A stretch of DNA of 64,000 bases from an uncultured Bacteroidales bacterium. Its GTDB lineage: Bacteria > Bacteroidota > Bacteroidia > Bacteroidales > UBA3663. Of this stretch, positions 2,795 to 64,000 are shown piece after piece; position 1 is the first letter of the stretch, and the number at the start of each line of letters is the position of its first letter. A model generated the notes under the pieces. The model saw only the letters and a list, made by a program, of their open reading frames with translations, was not told where the DNA came from and made no database searches. The translations under genes and the position numbers were made by a program. The stretch spans positions 48,218 to 112,217 of the forward strand of contig CACXTQ010000005.1 of assembly GCA_902770595.1 (NCBI GenBank), written 5' to 3'.

Positions 2795-4378
2795 ATGCCT
2801 ACAAACAACAACTTTAGTACAAACGGAGGCGCGCCGGCCAACCGTCGCAATACCCGTGCACAATCGCCCCAGCAACCTGCTTTGGGCAAGGTGCAGCCTC
2901 AAGCCACTGAGGTGGAAGAGGCTGTGCTGGGTGCCCTTATGCTCGAAAAGGACGCCTACTCGGTAATCTCCGACCTGCTGAAGCCCGAATCGTTCTACGA
3001 CCACAAGCACCAGCTGATCTTTGCTGCCATCCAGGAACTGGCATTCAACCAGGAACCTATCGACATGCTGACGGTGACCAACCGTCTGCAACGCAATGGC
3101 GTGATCGAAGAGGTGGGCGGTGCCTACTACATCGCCACCCTGACGAGCAAGGTAGGCTCTGCGGCCAATATCGAGTATCATGCGAAAATCATCGCCCAGA
3201 AGTCGCTGGCACGCCAACTGATCAACTATGCAGGCAAACTCGAGTCGGCAGCGTTCGACGAGACGACCGACATCGACGCACTGATGCAAAGCGCCGAAGG
3301 TGAGCTGTTCCAACTCTCGCAGCACAACATCAAGAAGGATGTCGTCCAGATTGACCCGGTGATTCAGGATGCGCTGAAGAAAATCGAGCAGGCTTCGAAT
3401 CGCGACGACGGTCTGTCGGGTCTGCCTTCTGGCTTCCATGACCTGGACAAAATTACTTCAGGCTGGCAGAACACCGACCTGGTTATCATCGCAGCACGCC
3501 CTGCCATGGGCAAGACGGCGCTTGTGCTTTCGATGGTGAAGAACATGGCGGTGAACTACAACATCCCCGTCGGCATGTTCAGCTTGGAGATGAGTAACCT
3601 TCAGCTCGTGAACCGATTGCTGCAAAACGTTTGCGAAATCTCGGGCGAGAAGGTGAAGAGCGGTAGGCTGACCAGCGACGAGTGGACCAAACTGACCACC
3701 CGCATCACCCAACTGCAAGGTGCCCCCATCTATGTGGACGACACTCCTGGTCTGTCGGTATTCGAACTTCGTACGAAAGCCCGCCGACTGGTGCGTGAAC
3801 ATGGCGTGAAGATCATTATGATCGACTACCTGCAGCTGATGACGGCCGCTGGTATGCAATTCGGTTCGCGCGAACAGGAGGTTTCGACCATTTCGCGTTC
3901 GCTGAAAGGATTGGCCAAGGAACTCGACATCCCGATCATCGCACTGTCGCAGTTGAACCGTGGTGTCGAGACCCGCCAAGGCGAGGGAAAGCGTCCACAG
4001 TTGGCCGACCTCCGCGAGTCGGGTGCCATCGAGCAGGATGCCGATATGGTGTGCTTCATCCATCGTCCCGAGTACTACAAGATCTTTGAGGATGAGAAAG
4101 GCAACGACCTGCGCGGCCTGGCCGAAATCATCATCGCCAAGCATCGTAGCGGTTCGGTTGGTGACGTCCGCCTGAGGTTCCGTGGTGAGTTCGTTCGTTT
4201 CCAGAACCTTGACGAGGACTCTAGCCTCACCCCCACCCTCACCCCTTGGAGCGGTGACCACGAACTGACGTCCCGCATGGACAACGAACCACGTCCCGAC
4301 ATGTCACAACAGCCTAATGGTTTCGAAGCTCCTTCGGGCGGCTTCGGCGCTCCTGAACCAGGGGAGGCTCCATTTTAA
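2795..4378 (+). CDS. dnaB: Replicative DNA helicase DnaB
   Basis: 527 aa. EEAVLGALMLE N-terminal domain, Walker A AARPAMGKTA, IMIDYLQLM, LSQLNR and ADLRESGAIEQDADMV motifs. Confidence 0.95.
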   Translation: MPTNNNFSTNGGAPANRRNTRAQSPQQPALGKVQPQATEVEEAVLGALMLEKDAYSVISDLLKPESFYDHKHQLIFAAIQELAFNQEPIDMLTVTNRLQRNGVIEEVGGAYYIATLTSKVGSAANIEYHAKIIAQKSLARQLINYAGKLESAAFDETTDIDALMQSAEGELFQLSQHNIKKDVVQIDPVIQDALKKIEQASNRDDGLSGLPSGFHDLDKITSGWQNTDLVIIAARPAMGKTALVLSMVKNMAVNYNIPVGMFSLEMSNLQLVNRLLQNVCEISGEKVKSGRLTSDEWTKLTTRITQLQGAPIYVDDTPGLSVFELRTKARRLVREHGVKIIMIDYLQLMTAAGMQFGSREQEVSTISRSLKGLAKELDIPIIALSQLNRGVETRQGEGKRPQLADLRESGAIEQDADMVCFIHRPEYYKIFEDEKGNDLRGLAEIIIAKHRSGSVGDVRLRFRGEFVRFQNLDEDSSLTPTLTPWSGDHELTSRMDNEPRPDMSQQPNGFEAPSGGFGAPEPGEAPF

Positions 4379-4379
4379 A

Positions 4380-4424
4380 GGTTTAGAAAGGTTAAGAGGG
4401 GTTTAGAAAGGTTCGAAGGGTTCG
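4380..4424. repeat. 10-bp phased word repeat directly after the dnaB stop
   Basis: ggtttagaaa|ggttaagagg|ggtttagaaa|ggttcgaagg|gttcg. It is followed at 4432..4484 by cggaatacc x2 and tataacgtaat(t/a)ccga x2. Confidence 0.85.
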
Positions 4425-4502
4425 TTTTTTTCGGAATACCGGAATACCGTTATAACGTAATTCCGATATAACGTAATACCGAATCGCATGAAGAAATAAA
4501 TA

Positions 4503-5198
4503 ATGATGAATATTTCAAATAAGATAGGAATTGCATCGATTGCGCTGACCATGCTGGCAGGGCACATGACGGCACAGGAAGTCGTCGCGCCCAACTATCG
4601 CGAGATCCGCACATCGATACAGAACAGCAAGAGCCCGAACTACTATCCACTGCTCATGCGGCGATACTTGGAAAACGATACGACGCTCACTCTCGAGCAA
4701 TATCGTTGCCTCTACTATGGCTATACGCTCCAAGAGGACTTCGTGCCCTATCAGAAAGAAAGGGAGAAACTCTTCGAGATACGCCGCGAACTGGTCAACA
4801 CCAATGGAAGCAAGTCAACCTGCACCGAGGCAATCAAAGTAGCGCAATCGGCACTGGAGGACGATCCATTCGACTTGCTTGCCATCTCGACACTCGCATT
4901 CTCGTACCTTCAGTTGAAGGACACGGTAAGCCACTCGCTGTGGAACAACAAGCAGGATGCACTACTCGATGCCATCGTGTCGAGCGGTGATGGTACAGAT
5001 GTTGATGATGCCATCCACGTCATCAACCTCGAGCATGAATACGAAGTGCTGAACCGTCTGGGCCTGCAAATCGAATCCGACTCGCTTTGCAACGACAACG
5101 TGGAATACCTGAGAGTTCAGTCGAATGCCGAGGACGTGAGAGGCGTCTTCTTCAACTTCGGCGCTTGCCGACAGGCTTATCGCAAGAAGTATGAATAA
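4503..5198 (+). CDS. Secreted hypothetical protein (DUF4919-like)
   Basis: 231 aa with a signal peptide ...LTMLAGHMTAQ. The YYPLLMRRYLENDTTLTLEQYRCLYYGY block resembles DUF4919. Confidence 0.5.
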   Translation: MMNISNKIGIASIALTMLAGHMTAQEVVAPNYREIRTSIQNSKSPNYYPLLMRRYLENDTTLTLEQYRCLYYGYTLQEDFVPYQKEREKLFEIRRELVNTNGSKSTCTEAIKVAQSALEDDPFDLLAISTLAFSYLQLKDTVSHSLWNNKQDALLDAIVSSGDGTDVDDAIHVINLEHEYEVLNRLGLQIESDSLCNDNVEYLRVQSNAEDVRGVFFNFGACRQAYRKKYE

Positions 5199-5208
5199 CA
5201 AATACAGA

Positions 5209-5244
5209 ATCTAGGACATCTAGAATATCTAGGACATCTAGAAA
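5209..5244. repeat. 9-bp phased CTAG word repeat
   Basis: atctaggac|atctagaat|atctaggac|atctagaaa, between convergent genes. Confidence 0.85.
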
Positions 5245-5247
5245 AAT

Positions 5248-5283
5248 TTAGGGGCGCATCATGCAATCGTGATACGCCCCTAA
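5248..5283. terminator. Hairpin between convergent genes (9-bp stem ttaggggcg/cgcccctaa, 18-nt loop)
   Basis: Arms at 5248..5256 and 5275..5283 are exact reverse complements. An A-run lies upstream. The hairpin sits between the 5198 stop (+) and the 5303 stop (-). Confidence 0.6.
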
Positions 5284-5302
5284 CTATTGAAGAAAAATCA
5301 CC

Positions 5303-6811
5303 TTACTTTGAAAGATCGACAGCGAAGTAGCCTACACGGCCCTGGGCTGTAACTGCGGCAATGAACATTACCGGATCCTGATCGGCAGAACGCTTGGTAG
5401 TAAGCTGGTTGAAGATGTTCTCGATGTCCTTGGCGCTCTTCACAGCCTGGTCATTGATCTTGATGATGACCATCTTCTCACGCAGTCCTGCACGGTAGAA
5501 GAGTCCGTTGGTCTCGAGCTTGTCAATCTGTACGCCAGTACGAACACCATAGCGGATGAGCTCCTCAGCAGAGAGGTTCTTGAAAGTGGCACCCAGCTTG
5601 TCGATACCCTTGGTCTGGATCACGTCGGTGTTGCCCTTAGTGTTCTTGAGTGTAACGGTGAAGTTCTTCTTATCACCCTTACGATCGACTACGACCTTCA
5701 CCTTATCGCCTGGTCGATAGCGGGCAATCTCGCCCTGAAGTTGAGCCATGGTGTTGATAGTAGTTCCGTTGACCGAAGTAATGACGTCACCTGGCTTGAT
5801 GCCTGCCTCAGCAGCACCACCATCTTCGGATACCTGATCGACATAAACACCTTCGTTGACCTTCAAATCCTTCTGCTCTACCACATCGGCATTGACATCA
5901 CCACCGATGATACCGAGCAATGCACGCTGCACTGTGCCGTACTGCTTCAAGTCGGTCACAACCTTGCTCACGATGCTCGAAGGCACAGCGAAGGAATAAC
6001 CAGCGTAGTTGCCGGTCTGTGAATAGATGGCAGTATTGATGCCCACAAGTTCGCCGGCCGTGTTGACGAGAGCGCCACCTGAGTTGCCTGGATTGACGGC
6101 TGCATCGGTCTGGATGAAACTTTCGATACCGAGCTTGCTGCTGCCTACGCTGATACTACGAGCCTTGGCGCTGACGATACCTGCGGTGACCGTGCTGGTG
6201 AGGTTGAAAGGATTGCCCACAGCAAGTACCCATTCGCCAATCTTCAGTGCATCACTCTGTCCCATAGGGATGGTGGGAAGGTCCTTGGCATCAATCTTTA
6301 GCAAAGCGATGTCAGTGGTAGGATCGGTGCCCACAAGAGTTGCGGTGAACTGACGACGATCGTTGAGGGTGACGGTGAGTTCGTCGGCCTTGTCAATCAC
6401 GTGATTGTTGGTGACAATGTATCCGTCGCTCGAAATGATGACACCCGAACCGGCGCCAACGGGCATCGGATCGCTCGACTGAGGCTCCTGCTGACGTTGG
6501 CCACGCTGACCGAAGAAGAAATCGAAGAAAGGATCGTTCATGCCTCCGAACGACTGCGCCTGACGCACCTGCTTGTTGGTGATGCCCACCACGGCATTCA
6601 CCGTCTTCTCGGCAGCACGCGTGAAATCGTTATCGGTCACCGAACCCGTCGAGGTGGTAAAGAATCCTGTTGGGGTAAGTGAAATAGAACTATCCTGCTG
6701 GGCAAGGTCATTCACCATCTTGCCCTCCATTACCTTAAATGTGGCAGCGGCAGTAACTCCGCTCACAACAACCATAGCTCCCAAGAGCTTTAATACACTA
6801 CTTGTTTTCAT
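5303..6811 (-). CDS. htrA: Periplasmic serine endoprotease, HtrA/DegP/DegQ family (trypsin-like domain + 2 PDZ)
   Basis: 502 aa with a signal peptide. Catalytic blocks TNNHV, DIALLK and GNSGGALVN, plus PDZ-like C-terminal halves. Confidence 0.9.
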   Translation of the reverse strand: MKTSSVLKLLGAMVVVSGVTAAATFKVMEGKMVNDLAQQDSSISLTPTGFFTTSTGSVTDNDFTRAAEKTVNAVVGITNKQVRQAQSFGGMNDPFFDFFFGQRGQRQQEPQSSDPMPVGAGSGVIISSDGYIVTNNHVIDKADELTVTLNDRRQFTATLVGTDPTTDIALLKIDAKDLPTIPMGQSDALKIGEWVLAVGNPFNLTSTVTAGIVSAKARSISVGSSKLGIESFIQTDAAVNPGNSGGALVNTAGELVGINTAIYSQTGNYAGYSFAVPSSIVSKVVTDLKQYGTVQRALLGIIGGDVNADVVEQKDLKVNEGVYVDQVSEDGGAAEAGIKPGDVITSVNGTTINTMAQLQGEIARYRPGDKVKVVVDRKGDKKNFTVTLKNTKGNTDVIQTKGIDKLGATFKNLSAEELIRYGVRTGVQIDKLETNGLFYRAGLREKMVIIKINDQAVKSAKDIENIFNQLTTKRSADQDPVMFIAAVTAQGRVGYFAVDLSK

Positions 6812-58254: not shown

Positions 58255-58365
58255 TCTTTCTTTTCTATCACGAATTAGAGAATTTGAGAATATTATTATT
58301 TGACCCTATCTCTATTCGATACTCAATTCGATAATTCTTGAAAAAAGTATATCGTCGAAAAAAAC

Positions 58366-58402
58366 AAGCCCTCGGAATCTAGGTCTCGAGGGCTTTTCTT
58401 TT
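58366..58402 (+). terminator. Intrinsic terminator marking the end of the core block
   Basis: aagccctcg (58366..58374) pairs with cgagggctt (58386..58394), then ttctttt. Confidence 0.75.
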
Positions 58403-58526
58403 CCTCCCCACTCGGATCAACCATCCTGGTCATGCCAGTCAATGGATCGAACAGATAATCCATTTTTTATAGTTATCCCCTATTCAAATAAACTTATAAA
58501 GATTATTTAACGAATCTTCAAAGCCA

Positions 58527-58898
58527 TTAGTGAAGAAATGCACCAATAGAAAATGCTGCAATTAACCCTATAATTAAACTAATAGGCACCAGGGACGGAA
58601 ATAGCCACTGAGATAAAAACGTATTGTATTTAGAGTCCTTAAATTTTTCAATTATTTTAGTTTTATTTTTTTTGTATCTTATGTATGACAAATAGAAGCC
58701 TGTTGCATACAAGATAATAATTGCAATTTTCCCATTGACTTTATCTTGTACCAATGTATGCAGAATTTCCATCCAAACAGCTGATGCTATATTGAGAAAA
58801 ACCGCTGCCGTTGCAAATGAACCATATAATAAAGCAGGATCTTTTCTTGCTTGATAATATAAATACATCCGATAAAAATAATAGTCAAAAATAGTCAT
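58527..58898 (-). CDS. Multi-TM small protein, candidate cognate immunity protein of the RHS toxin
   Basis: 123 aa. Its start is 11 nt after the RHS stop on the same strand. Very AT-rich. Hydrophobic spans: LLYGSFATAAVFLNIASAVWMEIL, IAIIILYATGFYLSYI and WLFPSLVPISLIIGLIAAFSIGAFL. Confidence 0.6.
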   Translation of the reverse strand: MTIFDYYFYRMYLYYQARKDPALLYGSFATAAVFLNIASAVWMEILHTLVQDKVNGKIAIIILYATGFYLSYIRYKKNKTKIIEKFKDSKYNTFLSQWLFPSLVPISLIIGLIAAFSIGAFLH

Positions 58899-58909
58899 AT
58901 TCGTTATAA

Positions 58910-61900
58910 TTAAGGTAATTTATACTCATAAAAATAGTTCAAGGATGTGTCAATCCCGTTGCCTCCTGTATATATGTGCCAGATAAGATCTGCACCAAGA
59001 TACATCAAGCCCACCGCAGGACAGTACATTCCTGCCGCCAACATAACTATATTAGTTGCGTCCCCGAGTCCAACCGCTCTCTTTTCGTAAATATTATATC
59101 CAGTACTTGCAGCATCCATTAAAATTAGTCCATAGCCTGTTCCTTTAATCACAGGCCGAACCTTTTTTACCACATTAGTTATGCTATTGTAAATTTTTGC
59201 ATTCGGAGTTTTCACTTCAAAGGCCAAACTTTTCTTTAGGTCCCAAACGAATTTGGATTTTTCGCCCGTTTTCTTCTTTAGCCATTTTTCGCTGGATTCA
59301 TCCAGATCGCTGAGAAACTTGCCAGCCACGCCCAATTCTATCGCAACAAAATCGAGGCTGTTGATGAAGTCGTTCTTAAATACCTTGCAGGTCAGATAGA
59401 CTTCATCTCCTATGACATCGCCATGCGTATAATAGGCCCTTTTCGTCTCATCGTTGTAAGTCAGATTAGAGAGGAATTCGGTATCACTTGCATGATACCA
59501 GTTGCTCATGTCAATATCCTCAAGACGAGTATAGCTTGTTACTGCATCGTAGAATTGGCAGATTAAGGCAGGGTCGCTGGTGGACCAATAATCGCAGCCA
59601 TTGTAATCTCCGAAGTTCACGGGATCACCGATGCAGTAATTGTATGGACTTACCCCAGTACTTCTTTCGCACAGCGGGTCAATCCTGTCCCACATCGGAG
59701 CCATGGCGTAATATTGGCGTGCATGGATGTCATAGTTATCCAGTCCGAAGGAGCGGTCCAGTTCCTTGCCCTCGAATTTGTAGGGCTGCAGCAATTGGCG
59801 GGTGCTGATCTCGCCGATTACTCCTCCGTATGGATAGTAGTGCGTCACCTGCTCGATGGTGTCGGCACGGCCATCAATCACCATGCGGTTGCTGCCGAGG
59901 TAGTCCTTGACAAAATAATGGATTCCGTCGATCGTATCATTGGAGAACGAGAAGTAGCCGCCATCGAAATGATAGGATTCAGGATGGCCGTTCCGGAGGA
60001 TGAGACTGCCCAGATAGTCAGTCGTGTCGCGCAGGATGGTGTATCCGAAATTCGAAAGGCGCCTTTCGTGGACAGCGCGAAGCTTCCGACCGTCGGCAGA
60101 GTATGTATAACGGATATAGTTGCCGGCGCCACCGTTGTAGAAGGCAATCGAGGTCGGATGTCCGAGGTTGCTGTAACTGATGTTATGAATATCCCTGTTA
60201 AGATCTCTGGTCAAGGCACCGTTGCGGTTATAGCTGTATTCCTGGCTGGATGAATGGCCATCGACAAAGTCCGACGATCCGTCATAGCTCAGGCTGCCGC
60301 TAGCATCCGAAACCGAGGTGCGCTGGTTGCCGTGATAACTGAGTGTCAAATTGTCGATCAGACCGTACGAATTCGTGTCAAGCAACCCACGCCGCCGCAA
60401 GACTGTGATGTTGCTGTTCTTGTCGTAAGTTATCTTTTCGCCATATTTGTCACCGAGAAAGATTGGCTGGACGGAAAGGTCGGAGGCCGTTGTTCCGACA
60501 GTCGGGCTTTGGGCACTAACAGCATCCGCAAGAGTGAAGTCCAGATCTGTCGAAGGTATGAGGGACAGTGGATTGAAGAGCGAGGGATCGGAGACATTCG
60601 ACAGAGGGACTGGCGGTACAATCCCCGGATTGGGGCCAAAAGGATTGAGCCGTGCCGTTTCCGAATACGTGGCTTCTTCCAATCGACCTGCCTCATCATA
60701 AATATAGTCATACCTGCGACTGAAGCCACCCTGGCTCGGGACATACCAACTCATGGCTGAAATGGAGCCGTTGTAAAGGGGATTGCTCGAATTGTCCTGC
60801 CTGAACAGCATCTGCTCGAATCCGCCTGCCGAACGGATACTCGTCAGCCAGCCGTGCATGGGGTCGTAGTCATATTCCATGTCGGCTGACGAACCGTCCT
60901 GATTCGTTGTCCTTACGAGATTGCCCCAGTCATCGTATTCGCAGCTGAGGGTGTCTGTCTGTGTCCTGCCTGCCGCATCTGTCACTGCGATGGTGCGATA
61001 ACGCAATAGTCGGGAGTGGGGATAGTAATGGTTGTGCTGCTCGCTAGACACAAGTGTCTCAAGGCGGCCGCTTCCCGACAACCTATTGTACGACTTCTCC
61101 TCCTTCAAGACATCACCTACAAAGTTGTACCTCATCCTATGCGTACATAACATACCATCCAGCCCGACGGAAGCTATGCAAGCTATTCGGCCTTTGGCAT
61201 CATATTGATGGCACTGGATGAGATTACCGCCATTGATGCCTGGCTGCACGGTGCCAGCGAGTAGAGTGGAAGGTTTGCCGCAAATGACAGGTAGCTCGCC
61301 ATTCGCGCCGACATCTGCATCCATGGCGCTATCGAGTGAGTCCCGGACTGCAGCCGGGATGTCGTACAGGTCGAGGAATGCGTGGGAATTGTAATAGTTC
61401 ACGACTTCGACAGCCGTAAGCGACGATTCCATGTCTGCACAGATGCTGCTGTTGTTCAGACCCATCTGCGGGACGAACCCATATCCATAAGGCTTGACGA
61501 GACTCCCGTATGCACTGCTTCCTGAGCCGTAGATGGAATAGGTAAGGCAGAAACTGTCAGTGCACGAGGGGGAACTGTTGGCGAGGCATTGCACGACAGG
61601 ACGACCCAGCTTGTCGTAGAAAACCTTACGGAAAAGGCCCTTGGCACGCAGCTCTCCGTCCTGAATGCAGACCAGGCGGTCGGCCTTGTCATACCAGAAC
61701 TTGACGGCATCGCTGCCCGGGATGCATTTCTCGATAACTCTGCCCCGCTCGTCATACTTATATCCATAGGCATAAAGCGACAAGTCGGCATTCTCCTGAT
61801 ACATGGGAGACAAGACATATCTCAGCAGGCCGAGTTTGTCATAGACAAAGTAGGTGTCAAGACAGGCTGTCGCGCCTCGGCGTTCAAGGATTGTGTTACC

Positions 61901-62509
61901 CTGCAAATCTGAGAACTGTCTGACTGTGATACCATCTTCGTCAACAAAGGTGATGCAGGAGAGGCTACCGGCTTCATAACAGCCGTCCTCGTTCACTCCT
62001 TCCCCATCTGTCCACATGACATAGTGCTTTACCTCGCCTGCTGCATTGCTGCCATAGGTGACGATTCGGCTCCTGCCAGTCCAGGCGCTGCCAGGCATGG
62101 AGACTGCCACCTGACGACCCAGGGCATCGTATTCGAATCCCCGATATGGCCTGCTGTCAGAAAAGGTGCTTGCGCTCATAGAGTGGAAATTGTCAGGCGC
62201 CAGATAATGCTGTGTCTCATCATCGGGAATTGGGCACCACGATTGCGACACTTGCCCTTGGAAATTGTAGCTGACCATCGAACGCAGATTCCGTCCGTCA
62301 GAATTTCGCCCGCTGACGAGCATCTGATTCTGCCGTCCCAGGTCATCAAAATAACGGACGGTAAAGACGCTGTCGCTGCCAGAGGTGTCAAGATAAAGAC
62401 GTTCCAGAATGTAATTGTGGCAAGTATCCTGCGCATGAGCTACCGGCAAAGAAATCAGGACAGCCATTGCCAGGAGGCAGCATCTTGTGATTTGTCTTGT
62501 CGGATTCAT
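58910..62509 (-). CDS. RHS/YD-repeat polymorphic toxin with Sec signal peptide and an unassigned C-terminal domain
   Basis: 1199 aa. Signal peptide ...LISLPVAHAQ. Many YD-type repeats (YDALGRQ, YKYDERGRV, FYDKLGRP, YDAKGRI, YIYDEAGRL, YTYSADGRKL). RHS-associated core YYPYGG...YKFEGKELD...HARQYY...SPYNYCIGDPVNFGDYNG. Then 228 aa of unrelated sequence. Confidence 0.9.
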   Translation of the reverse strand: MNPTRQITRCCLLAMAVLISLPVAHAQDTCHNYILERLYLDTSGSDSVFTVRYFDDLGRQNQMLVSGRNSDGRNLRSMVSYNFQGQVSQSWCPIPDDETQHYLAPDNFHSMSASTFSDSRPYRGFEYDALGRQVAVSMPGSAWTGRSRIVTYGSNAAGEVKHYVMWTDGEGVNEDGCYEAGSLSCITFVDEDGITVRQFSDLQGNTILERRGATACLDTYFVYDKLGLLRYVLSPMYQENADLSLYAYGYKYDERGRVIEKCIPGSDAVKFWYDKADRLVCIQDGELRAKGLFRKVFYDKLGRPVVQCLANSSPSCTDSFCLTYSIYGSGSSAYGSLVKPYGYGFVPQMGLNNSSICADMESSLTAVEVVNYYNSHAFLDLYDIPAAVRDSLDSAMDADVGANGELPVICGKPSTLLAGTVQPGINGGNLIQCHQYDAKGRIACIASVGLDGMLCTHRMRYNFVGDVLKEEKSYNRLSGSGRLETLVSSEQHNHYYPHSRLLRYRTIAVTDAAGRTQTDTLSCEYDDWGNLVRTTNQDGSSADMEYDYDPMHGWLTSIRSAGGFEQMLFRQDNSSNPLYNGSISAMSWYVPSQGGFSRRYDYIYDEAGRLEEATYSETARLNPFGPNPGIVPPVPLSNVSDPSLFNPLSLIPSTDLDFTLADAVSAQSPTVGTTASDLSVQPIFLGDKYGEKITYDKNSNITVLRRRGLLDTNSYGLIDNLTLSYHGNQRTSVSDASGSLSYDGSSDFVDGHSSSQEYSYNRNGALTRDLNRDIHNISYSNLGHPTSIAFYNGGAGNYIRYTYSADGRKLRAVHERRLSNFGYTILRDTTDYLGSLILRNGHPESYHFDGGYFSFSNDTIDGIHYFVKDYLGSNRMVIDGRADTIEQVTHYYPYGGVIGEISTRQLLQPYKFEGKELDRSFGLDNYDIHARQYYAMAPMWDRIDPLCERSTGVSPYNYCIGDPVNFGDYNGCDYWSTSDPALICQFYDAVTSYTRLEDIDMSNWYHASDTEFLSNLTYNDETKRAYYTHGDVIGDEVYLTCKVFKNDFINSLDFVAIELGVAGKFLSDLDESSEKWLKKKTGEKSKFVWDLKKSLAFEVKTPNAKIYNSITNVVKKVRPVIKGTGYGLILMDAASTGYNIYEKRAVGLGDATNIVMLAAGMYCPAVGLMYLGADLIWHIYTGGNGIDTSLNYFYEYKLP

Positions 62510-62510
62510 G

Positions 62511-64000
62511 TCAATTGCGATAATTATATTCTATCCCAGTTTCGCGGCTGCCGTTGGAATCGCGTGTGCCAACGAGTCTGCCTCTGTCGTCATATTGGAA
62601 AGTCCTCTCACGCCGATTGGAGTCCTGCATCCAGATGATGCCGACGAGCGGGTCATATTTGAATGTGGTCACCAAATATCCGCTTCCCTCATATTGGGTT
62701 CTCAGTCTCTTCAGAGCTAGGGTCAGTTGTTCCCCGTCGGCCTCGACATCAGGACACTGAAGCGTCCTGTCCGCAATGATTTCCGCTACTGGTAGTGTGC
62801 CATTGTATCCATAGATGTAATTGACATAAGTTGTCTCATCCTTAGCAATGCATGCCACCTTCCCCTTCGCATTGTAGCTGTATGTGACTCGCTGCAACGG
62901 AGAGCCACTCAATCCTGAAGACATTCTTGTCGGAAGCCATTTGCCATAAAGCTGCTGATAAGTGGTTTCTGATGAGGCTACTCTTACGCTATCGACGTAT
63001 GTTTCTTCCTTCACGGGAATCTGCATATTCGCTTCACGCATTCCATCATATCTGTTATCCTGGAACGGATAGGTATAGATGGTCATCTGAGTCTTGCCGT
63101 CGCTGCGCGTCGTCTTCTTTACCAGGGGCCGAATGGTCCGAAGGTGTTCGTCATATTCGTATTCTTCGGTTTCCGTGATGCCGTCGTGCAAGACTGTCTT
63201 TTTGGACAATAAATTGTATGATGGGACTATGTGAACGGTTGAGACCGAGTATTCGTATTGTACACCGGCCACGTCAGAAATCCTCCAAACACCGTTTAGT
63301 CCATCCTCGAAAATGATTTTAGGTCTGATGCGTACTCCGCCATCATATATGGCAAGGACTCCATTGTCGTATAGGTTGTTTTCTTCATAAACCAACGAGT
63401 CATTCCCTGTCATCGACTTTTGATAGATTCTTTTCCTGGCAAGCTGGTATGCGGGATTACCCCTATCATAATTATAGGCAGGATCCCATAGGATTATTGA
63501 TTCCCAGCTATGGGAATCGCTATCCTCTTGGGGCAGCTCTGGATAGAATCGGGAATAGTCATACAGCGTCTTTCGGCTATATTCTTCTGTTGTCCCATCG
63601 TATTCTGCTATTTTAAGATAATGAATCGGAGCGCTGCCTTCCGTCAGCGGCCGGACGGGAGAGCCCCGCCATTCCCTGCGCAGCAAGGCAGAAGGTGCGC
63701 CAGGATATGGAGCAGTAATCCCGCTGCTCAGTCTTGACGGATAATCACGGAAATAAAGGTCCTCCCTGACGGACATGTTCAAGGTGTTCAGTACGCAATA
63801 GGGGGCCACAGCATCGAAGTACCTATAGGACTTCCTGTGGGACAGTGAACCGTCAGACTGATAGCTTGAGTAGCTCCTCAGACGCAATCCGCCCCAAATG
63901 CCATCCTCTTCGATATAGTTCGATTCAAAATCGAAGACAGTGTATCCGCCAGTGGGATAAACGATCTTTGTCAGGGACGAGGCTTTGCAATGCTCCTCAT
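62511..64000 (-). CDS. YD-repeat-like large protein, N-terminus beyond the window; upstream partner of the RHS toxin
   Basis: The frame stays open to position 64000 (my translation upstream of the track TTG: ...KIVYPTGGYTVFDFESNYIEEDGIWGG-LRLRSY...). C-terminal FQYDDRGRLVGTRDSNG is a YD repeat. Its stop is 1 nt before the RHS ATG. Confidence 0.7.
   Translation of the reverse strand, partial: EEHCKASSLTKIVYPTGGYTVFDFESNYIEEDGIWGGLRLRSYSSYQSDGSLSHRKSYRYFDAVAPYCVLNTLNMSVREDLYFRDYPSRLSSGITAPYPGAPSALLRREWRGSPVRPLTEGSAPIHYLKIAEYDGTTEEYSRKTLYDYSRFYPELPQEDSDSHSWESIILWDPAYNYDRGNPAYQLARKRIYQKSMTGNDSLVYEENNLYDNGVLAIYDGGVRIRPKIIFEDGLNGVWRISDVAGVQYEYSVSTVHIVPSYNLLSKKTVLHDGITETEEYEYDEHLRTIRPLVKKTTRSDGKTQMTIYTYPFQDNRYDGMREANMQIPVKEETYVDSVRVASSETTYQQLYGKWLPTRMSSGLSGSPLQRVTYSYNAKGKVACIAKDETTYVNYIYGYNGTLPVAEIIADRTLQCPDVEADGEQLTLALKRLRTQYEGSGYLVTTFKYDPLVGIIWMQDSNRRERTFQYDDRGRLVGTRDSNGSRETGIEYNYRN

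Follow-up and report, generated by a model that had tools for sequence, protein, structure and literature searches.

A 64,000-nucleotide stretch of DNA (here called the window) from an uncultured Bacteroidales bacterium of the UBA3663 lineage (GenBank assembly GCA_902770595.1, contig CACXTQ010000005.1, positions 48,218 to 112,217 of the forward strand) encodes a large RHS protein followed directly by a small membrane protein. Our analysis suggests that the two are very probably a Bfe1-type toxin and its immunity protein, carried on a Sec-exported, TcC-like RHS scaffold. An initial sequence-only reading had described the 228-amino-acid (aa) tail of the RHS protein as the toxin domain of a previously uncharacterised effector. 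The analysis does not support that description: the second half of the tail falls, through a transitive profile link, in the same superfamily as the C-terminal domain of Bfe1, and the adjoining immunity protein resembles Bfi1. The locus is otherwise a standard RHS toxin-immunity cassette.

Bfe1 is an effector of the GA3 type VI secretion system (T6SS) of Bacteroides fragilis 638R and GS086, encoded in a variable region beside minor hcp genes. The Bacteroidales that it kills are diverse, and Bfi1 (BF638R_1987) neutralises it. When equipped with a signal sequence and sent to the periplasm, Bfe1 kills B. thetaiotaomicron, and pLGB13 uses it for counter-selection (PMC6692515). Loading of Bfe1 into Hcp2-Hcp3 is mediated by its first ~70 aa; the soluble part spans residues 1-242, and a transmembrane C terminus is predicted beyond it (PMC13035841). 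The bfi1 gene has been reported only in 35 B. fragilis strains, always adjoining bfe1 (PMC6692515).

The RHS protein gene and its scaffold features are as follows.

58910 to 62509, minus strand: RHS protein gene, an intact open reading frame (ORF) of 1199 aa with signal peptide, DUF6443, YD/RHS repeats, Rhs-associated core and cargo tail.
62432 to 62509, minus strand: predicted Sec signal peptide (MNPTRQITRCCLLAMAVLISLPVAHA, followed by Q), read by eye from the translation.
59597 to 59839, minus strand: Rhs-associated core domain (TIGR03696, aa 891-971), which closes the shell and bears the putative autoprotease motif.

DUF6443 lies at aa 42-151 (Pfam, E 7.5e-12), and the repeats match both Pfam RHS_repeat (E 2.3e-13) and TIGR01643 (E 2.1e-5). 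TIGR03696 is matched over positions 1-75 of the 76 in its hidden Markov model (HMM), at 44 bits against a cutoff of 32.5 (NCBIfam, E 2.3e-11). This match ends at aa 971, as the sequence-only reading had placed the end of the core, so that the core closes with GDYNG971 and the cargo tail occupies 58913-59596 (aa 972-1199, 228 aa). The shift to an AT-rich composition noted by eye is also borne out: GC content falls from 0.531 in the core to 0.435 at aa 973-1051 and 0.403 at aa 1066-1199, reaching 0.304 in the immunity gene, and the housekeeping gene beyond that gene stands at 0.567. This drop, together with the immunity gene downstream, agrees with the proposal that the tail is exchangeable RHS cargo. 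An identical 1199-aa protein is present on 8 public contigs.

Direct searches with the 228-aa tail gave nothing above noise in Pfam or NCBIfam at E<=1 and, noise aside, no match among Protein Data Bank (PDB) sequences at E<=10; a Foldseek search with its predicted structure found no match in the PDB (best E 0.75) or BFVD. No enzyme family or fold was thus matched, in line with the absence of an enzyme signature reported initially. A word-indexed search of 5.8 billion proteins recovered only two close homologues, both fragments. A profile made from the tail and two close homologues, run exhaustively with HMMER against 1.84 billion representative proteins, returned 99 matches. Judged from where these matches fall along its length, the tail is not a single domain but two modules, A and B, joined by a short linker.

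59357 to 59593, minus strand: module A, a pre-toxin alpha/beta module, aa 973-1051 (HMMER split and AlphaFold2 [AF2]).
59315 to 59356, minus strand: inter-module linker, part of a low-confidence amphipathic helix (AF2 helix at tail aa 76-109, predicted local distance difference test [pLDDT] 44-58).
58913 to 59314, minus strand: module B, the predicted Bfe1-type toxin domain, aa 1066-1199 (HMMER, NF053698 matches of relatives, and hhalign).

Module B carries the motifs W..KSK.VW..KK, IY, IGLG(D/N) and Y.GAD. Nine of the HMMER matches (P0010, P0031, P0046, P0060, P0064, P0070, P0074, P0095 and P0100) cover this module only, at tail positions ~95-228, and a few proteins (P0003, P0004 and P0101) have both modules as in the window. 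What precedes module B varies: a glycine-rich hydrophobic region in P0060 (a 2079-aa SpvB/FG-GAP/RHS protein), P0095, P0064 and P0074; in P0031 and P0070 the module follows a plain DPxGL junction. Identity to the closest toxin homologue, P0001, is 74%.

Seven of the 14 module-B members match NF053698, the NCBIfam model "Bfe1 family T6SS effector protein," and they always do so on the last ~130 of its 313 positions (~181-313). E values are 4.6e-11 for P0100, 1.7e-8 for P0031, 1.8e-4 for P0006, 0.013 for P0010 and 0.072 for P0003; the best, 1.9e-11, was obtained when the P0100 gene was read as a longer ORF in L007. These relatives score at most 44 bits, against a curated cutoff of 315 bits that is set for the full-length protein. 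When the profile of the window's own clade was aligned with that of the Bfe1-like subgroup by hhalign, the two were related with 98.4% probability (E 6.9e-15) over 103 columns. Together, these profile comparisons suggest that module B is distantly homologous to the toxic C-terminal domain of Bfe1. Searches with module-B alignments enlarged the family and included no named Bfe1 protein among their matches; a profile search of genome contigs with the Bfe1-like subgroup gave 3 loci, none of them B. fragilis, and a tblastn search of plasmids gave no match.

The gene downstream points to the same pair.

58527 to 58898, minus strand: Bfi1-like immunity gene, 123 aa with three predicted membrane helices, starting 11 nt past the RHS stop codon.

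Its product weakly matches NF053699 ("Bfi1 family immunity protein") with an E value of 0.0025, residues 1-110 aligning to HMM positions 1-118 of 131. NF053699 is matched by four of five immunity homologues (best E 6.3e-5), with weak scores and hydrophobic proteins throughout, and is the only family matched by more than one of the five. A homologous ORF with three transmembrane segments lies directly 3' of the module-B toxin in all eight loci compared, that is, the window and seven others (L007, L008, L009, L011, L012, L015 and L016). These loci span the orders Bacteroidales, Flavobacteriales, Chitinophagales and Sphingobacteriales; L007 is from Profundicola chukchiensis, L011 from a Chitinophagales metagenome-assembled genome (MAG) and L012 from a Sphingobacteriales MAG. 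By BLASTP, the window's protein is similar to the ORF that follows the P0100 toxin in L007 (E 2e-10), and the homologues share the N-terminal motif (D/N)Y(I/Y/F)(F/Y)YR(M/L/V/I/T)Y. Its position 11 nt downstream and this eight-of-eight association support the earlier nomination of the polytopic membrane protein as immunity candidate. Because toxin and immunity protein point independently to one known pair, a compositional artefact is unlikely.

Several of the immunity ORFs are uncalled in the source annotation (L007:5414-5818 and L009:2089-2487). The immunity gene beside P0001 is split into two ORFs (L015:753-1229), which reflects a frameshift pseudogene or else a misassembly of this short Logan contig. 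Arrays of orphan cassettes, each made up of a short RHS-tip fragment, a toxin tail behind it and then a small immunity ORF, occur at L007:1800-8600, L009:1-2600 and L012:900-4900; in L007, the RHS fragment (4310-5047) and the toxin (4860-5423) differ in frame. Downstream of the toxin-immunity pair in L008 (1376-1930) is a long tandem repeat that encodes ...CP(P/S)TNV(S/R/G)GH(H/L)P(V/I)... units on one strand and is open in several frames.

The window pair resembles Bfe1 and Bfi1 in a toxin domain corresponding to the last ~130 aa of Bfe1 (HMM 181-313), including its predicted transmembrane part, and in a 123-aa immunity protein, encoded directly downstream, that is close in size to the 131-position Bfi1 model and aligns to it weakly but nearly end to end; the host phylum is also the same. 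Unlike Bfe1, the window protein has no N-terminal Hcp2-Hcp3 loading module and no T6SS genes nearby, and its toxin is fused via module A to a Sec-exported DUF6443-RHS shell. Bfi1, moreover, has been reported from B. fragilis T6SS loci only (PMC6692515), whereas the window family covers four Bacteroidota orders.

Module A has a much wider distribution. About 80 of the 99 HMMER matches cover tail positions 2-80 only, that is, module A alone (consensus DYWSTxDPxxIxxF...WxHxSDxEFxxNLTYNDET...), and in all of these proteins the match starts straight after the RHS DxxG cut site. Complete module-A tails measure 197-257 aa from the cut site, and their second halves come from several unrelated families, with "GNQYV...GGxAG" glycine-rich sequences, "GMPHGDSGR...HWR," "SHNGGVWKVF," "GYHEIE" and others recurring. 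Because at least 80 Bacteroidota RHS tails have module A and then unrelated toxins, we interpret it as a pre-toxin adaptor, most likely one that serves cargo handling or delivery and not killing. The toxin thus lies in the last ~130 aa of what had been taken for a 228-aa toxin domain, and the first ~80 aa are a pre-toxin module common to RHS tails with other toxins. Module A has no match in Pfam, NCBIfam or the PDB; it has a confidently predicted alpha/beta fold (pLDDT 91-94 over tail aa 1-70) and is a pre-toxin module that was uncatalogued so far.

The glycine-rich hydrophobic family behind module A (P0007, P0011, P0015, P0024, P0044, P0048, P0059 and P0090) reads GNQYV...DGGxIGYxT...GGxAGxxxGxxxG... 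and has many GxxxG-type spacings, unlike the window tail; no scan in this analysis put a name to it. At least three more toxin tails recur behind module A, with "GMPHGDSGR...KGExHWR," "SHNGGVWKVF...RIGTxDxNLNIxKK" and "KMGxxxGNxxxQNxQ...GxGYHEIE" as their motifs, and these further tails show that toxins that are probably soluble also follow module A. Conserved modules between a delivery scaffold and variable toxins are familiar from the "entry" domains of CdiA-CT and from the PT-TG, PT-VENN and PT-HINT pre-toxin domains. Module A resembles them in position and in being combined with many different toxins, and it matches none of those Pfam families.

The boundary between shell and cargo can be placed from the same alignment.

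59594 to 59611, minus strand: junction G967-D-Y-N-G-C972, with the predicted cut between C972 and D973 (alignment with 80 relatives).

With a slash marking the cut, the 80 module-A relatives read (I/V)DPxG(M/L/R/E/K)/DYWST, and the window protein reads NFG-D968-Y-N-G971-C972/D973-YWST. The aspartate, the glycine and the following DYWST are constant among the relatives, and the proline of DPxG is often swapped (DWNG, DDDG, DRFG, DIFG, DYWG, DYFG and DYDG); the closest relatives have GDY(N/D)G(C/R/Y). Compared with DPxGL, then, the window junction keeps D968 and G971 and has its proline replaced. Calling it degenerate overstated the case, since many relatives also lack the proline: in this alignment, GDYNG appears to be a common variant of the motif and not a decayed one, and the predicted self-cleavage at the junction is plausible. 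The start of the cargo given initially needs a small correction, as the likely cut falls one residue after it.

Like other TcC/Rhs cocoon proteins (TIGR03696, DPxGL), the window protein combines YD repeats, a core that ends at the junction, and an AT-rich exchangeable tail with an immunity gene. It differs from them in its junction, GDYNGC (proline replaced) instead of DPxGL, and in having a conserved ~80-aa module after the cut, where classical tails are hypervariable from the first residue.

We next consider how module B might act. AF2 gave a mean pLDDT of 78.6 with an 86-sequence alignment, compared with 40 with 3 sequences, and predicts a hydrophobic hairpin near the C terminus.

58970 to 59071, minus strand: hydrophobic helix-proline-helix hairpin, aa 1147-1180, with invariant Y1170 and D1174 (AF2, Kyte-Doolittle and alignment columns).

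The two hairpin helices, at tail aa 177-191 and 193-209, are arranged around P193 with pLDDT 85-94; the other C-terminal helices are a long one at 134-172 and a short one at 215-220. Membrane-like hydrophobicity is confined to a single segment of the tail, aa 176-209, with a Kyte-Doolittle 19-residue maximum of 1.7 and a rough Hessa sum (apparent insertion free energy) of +2.8 kcal/mol, similar to that of the first membrane helix of the immunity protein. The preceding tail aa 152-170 are weakly hydrophobic, and the linker helix reaches a Kyte-Doolittle value of ~1.1 at tail aa 87. The initial description of a glycine-zipper-like hydrophobic tail holds for the hydrophobic end, here predicted to be a helical hairpin, with the qualifications that just one segment is membrane-like and that the zipper is not canonical. 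The sole GxxxG of the hydrophobic end is G152-G156, outside the hairpin, and the small residues of the hairpin are conserved and irregularly spaced; without a repeated GxxxG within the membrane segment, we rejected the strict "glycine zipper" label. Searches of Pfam, NCBIfam and the PDB and with Foldseek found no sequence or fold likeness to known pore-forming or glycine-zipper toxins (Tse5-CT, Tse4, Ssp6, colicin pore domains and Pfam Gly-zipper families).

In the 14-sequence module-B alignment, W1076, S1085, Y1107, Y1170 and D1174 are invariant and K1084 nearly so. A wider superfamily ("NxIGEGGLDLIMxGVGFIPGxGWxxSGxYFxGK...DFWN") keeps the hydrophobic part only, behind a different polar half. 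This wider group keeps the hairpin and replaces the polar half, which suggests that the functional core shared across the superfamily is the hairpin.

For the tail toxin, action on the membrane is the most plausible mechanism. As we envisage it, the RHS shell protein would be exported by Sec with module A and the module-B toxin as its cargo, which would be released at the predicted aspartyl autoproteolysis site (...GDYNGC/DYWST...). In the periplasm of a target Bacteroidota cell, presumably its site of action, the hairpin would insert into the cytoplasmic membrane, making it leak ions and depolarise with no enzymatic step. Protection of the producer would come from the co-transcribed, three-helix, Bfi1-type inner-membrane protein, which may neutralise the toxin inside the membrane. 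We give permeabilisation of the membrane by module B an even chance of being correct; the conserved hairpin, the lack of an enzyme signature, the polytopic immunity protein, the periplasmic action of Bfe1 and the precedent of Tse5-CT and Tsi5 all argue for it.

Tse5-CT, from an Rhs toxin of Pseudomonas aeruginosa, is a 149-aa, non-enzymatic pore former that depolarises the cytoplasmic membrane, and its membrane immunity protein has two transmembrane segments (PMC9637101). Tse5 (RhsP1) and Tsi5 share with the window pair an RHS shell, a small hydrophobic C-terminal toxin and a small integral inner-membrane immunity protein (PMC9637101, PMC10684867), and we adopt them as the functional model for the window toxin. 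The likeness does not extend to sequence or fold, as Tse5 is in the PDB yet is unmatched by the window tail. The two also differ in delivery, which for Tse5 involves a PAAR-like domain, VgrG and the T6SS, whereas the window protein has a signal peptide and DUF6443, and Tse5 has no equivalent of module A.

Several points weigh against a Bfe1-type, membrane-permeabilising toxin. The link to Bfe1 is transitive, running through the profiles of relatives, and the window tail itself has no NF053698 match at E<=10. On the immunity side, the NF053699 match scores 17.8 bits against a cutoff of 100, and membrane proteins are prone to spurious weak matches. The hairpin helices are short (~15-17 aa) and marginally hydrophobic, with no canonical GxxxG zipper; AF2 confidence is low at tail aa 81-132, which contains the most conserved polar motif; and the invariant polar residues K1084, S1085, Y1107, Y1170 and D1174 could mark a binding or catalytic site. 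The mechanism of Bfe1 is not stated in PMC13035841, PMC13213661 or PMC11901371, and the B. fragilis T6SS effectors Bte1 and BteO act by binding envelope proteins, not as pores (PMC12541434, PMC13035841).

Three other explanations were weighed. It is possible, at a clearly lower probability than permeabilisation, that module B is a non-enzymatic binder: the hairpin would anchor it while a polar face (W1076, K1084-S1085, Y1107, Y1170 and D1174) sequesters a lipid carrier or an essential protein of the envelope, and the immunity protein would mimic or mask that target. Invariant polar residues in an otherwise divergent family, a marginally hydrophobic hairpin lacking a canonical zipper, and the precedents of Bte1 (which binds PpiD-YfgM) and BteO (which binds OmpA-family proteins and has predicted transmembrane domains), encoded in the same variable region as Bfe1 (PMC12541434, PMC13035841), all speak for such a binder. 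The wider superfamily (the "GEGGLDL...GFIPGxGW...YFGGK" group) speaks against it in swapping the polar N-terminal half and keeping the hairpin, as does an immunity protein that is integral to the membrane, which is typical of defence against membrane-inserting toxins. The pairs BteO/BtiO and Bte1/Bti1 have envelope-acting, non-enzymatic effectors of Bacteroides, and BteO likewise has predicted transmembrane domains (PMC13035841). These effectors work through binding to OmpA-family proteins or PpiD-YfgM (PMC12541434); no homology between them and module B was detected, and BtiO is an OmpA mimic not described as a small polytopic membrane protein.

The same residues (W, S, Y, Y and D invariant, K nearly so, across 14 divergent members) could instead form the Ser/Lys or Ser/Asp/Tyr centre (K1084-S1085 ... 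D1174) of a small enzyme whose substrate is embedded in the membrane, for instance lipid II, undecaprenyl phosphate or a phospholipid, and Bfe1 does act from the periplasm (PMC6692515). We consider this unlikely: no hydrolase, lipase, amidase or phosphatase family or fold was matched, the domain is only ~130 aa long with half of it a hydrophobic hairpin, and the wider superfamily lacks the K-S motif. Least probable is that the whole 228 aa form a single toxin domain without known relatives, as might be supposed from the lack of any direct Pfam, NCBIfam or PDB match and from the mere two close homologues in the word-indexed search; the 99 HMMER relatives split the tail into two independently distributed modules, and the Bfe1 and Bfi1 families are linked to module B and to the immunity gene, respectively. 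A further, linked pair of proposals is rather improbable in our view. Module A would be a dedicated cargo-handling or target-entry domain defining a T6SS-independent, Sec-dependent RHS route common to Bacteroidota, for membrane and presumably cytoplasmic toxins. The domain of Bfe1 and module B, with an invariant Tyr and Asp in its short hairpin, would represent a class of membrane toxin with a new mechanism, perhaps the blocking of one particular inner-membrane machine that the cell needs and not the formation of a generic pore.

The RHS gene stands third in an island of four genes, which encode, in order, a 340-aa protein, a 906-aa protein, the 1199-aa RHS protein and the 123-aa immunity protein. 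On one side the island borders bamD/rpoZ/DUF4293, and on the other, genes for saccharopine dehydrogenase and oxaloacetate decarboxylase. No T6SS genes were present in the loci inspected. The window is identical (100% over 8 kb) to a 116-kb metagenome scaffold, and the neighbouring housekeeping proteins group with Bacteroidaceae and Bacteroidales MAG proteins. The remaining features of the island and its surroundings are as follows.

62511 to 64000 (full gene, L013:4384-7104), minus strand: gene upstream of the RHS gene, 906 aa, extending past the window edge.
L013:3288-4310: gene of the 340-aa protein, preceding the 906-aa gene; no family match.
58484 to 58549, minus strand: relic of a second module-B C terminus, 21 codons (LLVHFFTNGFEDSLNNLYKFI, ending in a stop codon), in a different frame from the immunity gene, whose last codons it overlaps and whose stop it passes.
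58358 to 58395, minus strand: likely intrinsic terminator closing the operon, with a 9-bp stem, a 12-nt loop and U7.

The 906-aa protein has a signal peptide, one C-terminal YD repeat and no other family match, and its gene stops 1 nt before the RHS start; a 458-aa ORF in the window is the window-limited part of this gene. The 906-aa and 340-aa proteins may be accessory to RHS delivery. A role for the former as a TcB/SpvB-like partner (compare the fused P0060) is not supported, as BLASTP to P0060 matched YD repeats only and Pfam and NCBIfam recognised one YD repeat. The relic aligns with the extreme C terminus of P0001 (12 of 19 residues identical; BLASTP E 5e-7), and its DNA also aligns to the 3' end of the RHS gene itself. 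It is probably the scar of an earlier or displaced toxin cassette and would thus record cassette turnover.

The terminator separates the operon from the saccharopine dehydrogenase gene, which is convergent with it. RNA folding gives its hairpin -18.3 kcal/mol (z -4.0), with none of 200 shuffles as good, and a pattern scanner missed it because of the 12-nt loop. A 46-aa ORF at 58323-58463 on the minus strand (MDYLFDPLTGMTRMVDPSGEE...) looks by eye like the RHS core tip YDPxxGRFxxxDPxG. It has no HMM match, and the terminator hairpin overlaps its 3' half, so it is unlikely to be a gene.

Together, these results suggest a polymorphic-toxin superfamily that includes the toxic domain of Bfe1 and a Bfi1-like immunity protein and is spread over RHS proteins from four or more Bacteroidota orders. 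As a Bacteroides toxin, Bfe1 is validated and in wide use, serving as the counter-selection marker in pLGB13-type vectors, and the diverse alignment assembled here, with its invariant residues (K1084, S1085, Y1107, Y1170 and D1174), is available for mechanistic work on Bfe1-type toxins. Module A flags the cut site in many RHS toxins of Bacteroidota and could aid automated annotation of toxin boundaries. Bfi1-like immunity, previously thought to be limited to B. fragilis T6SS loci, may exist beyond this species.

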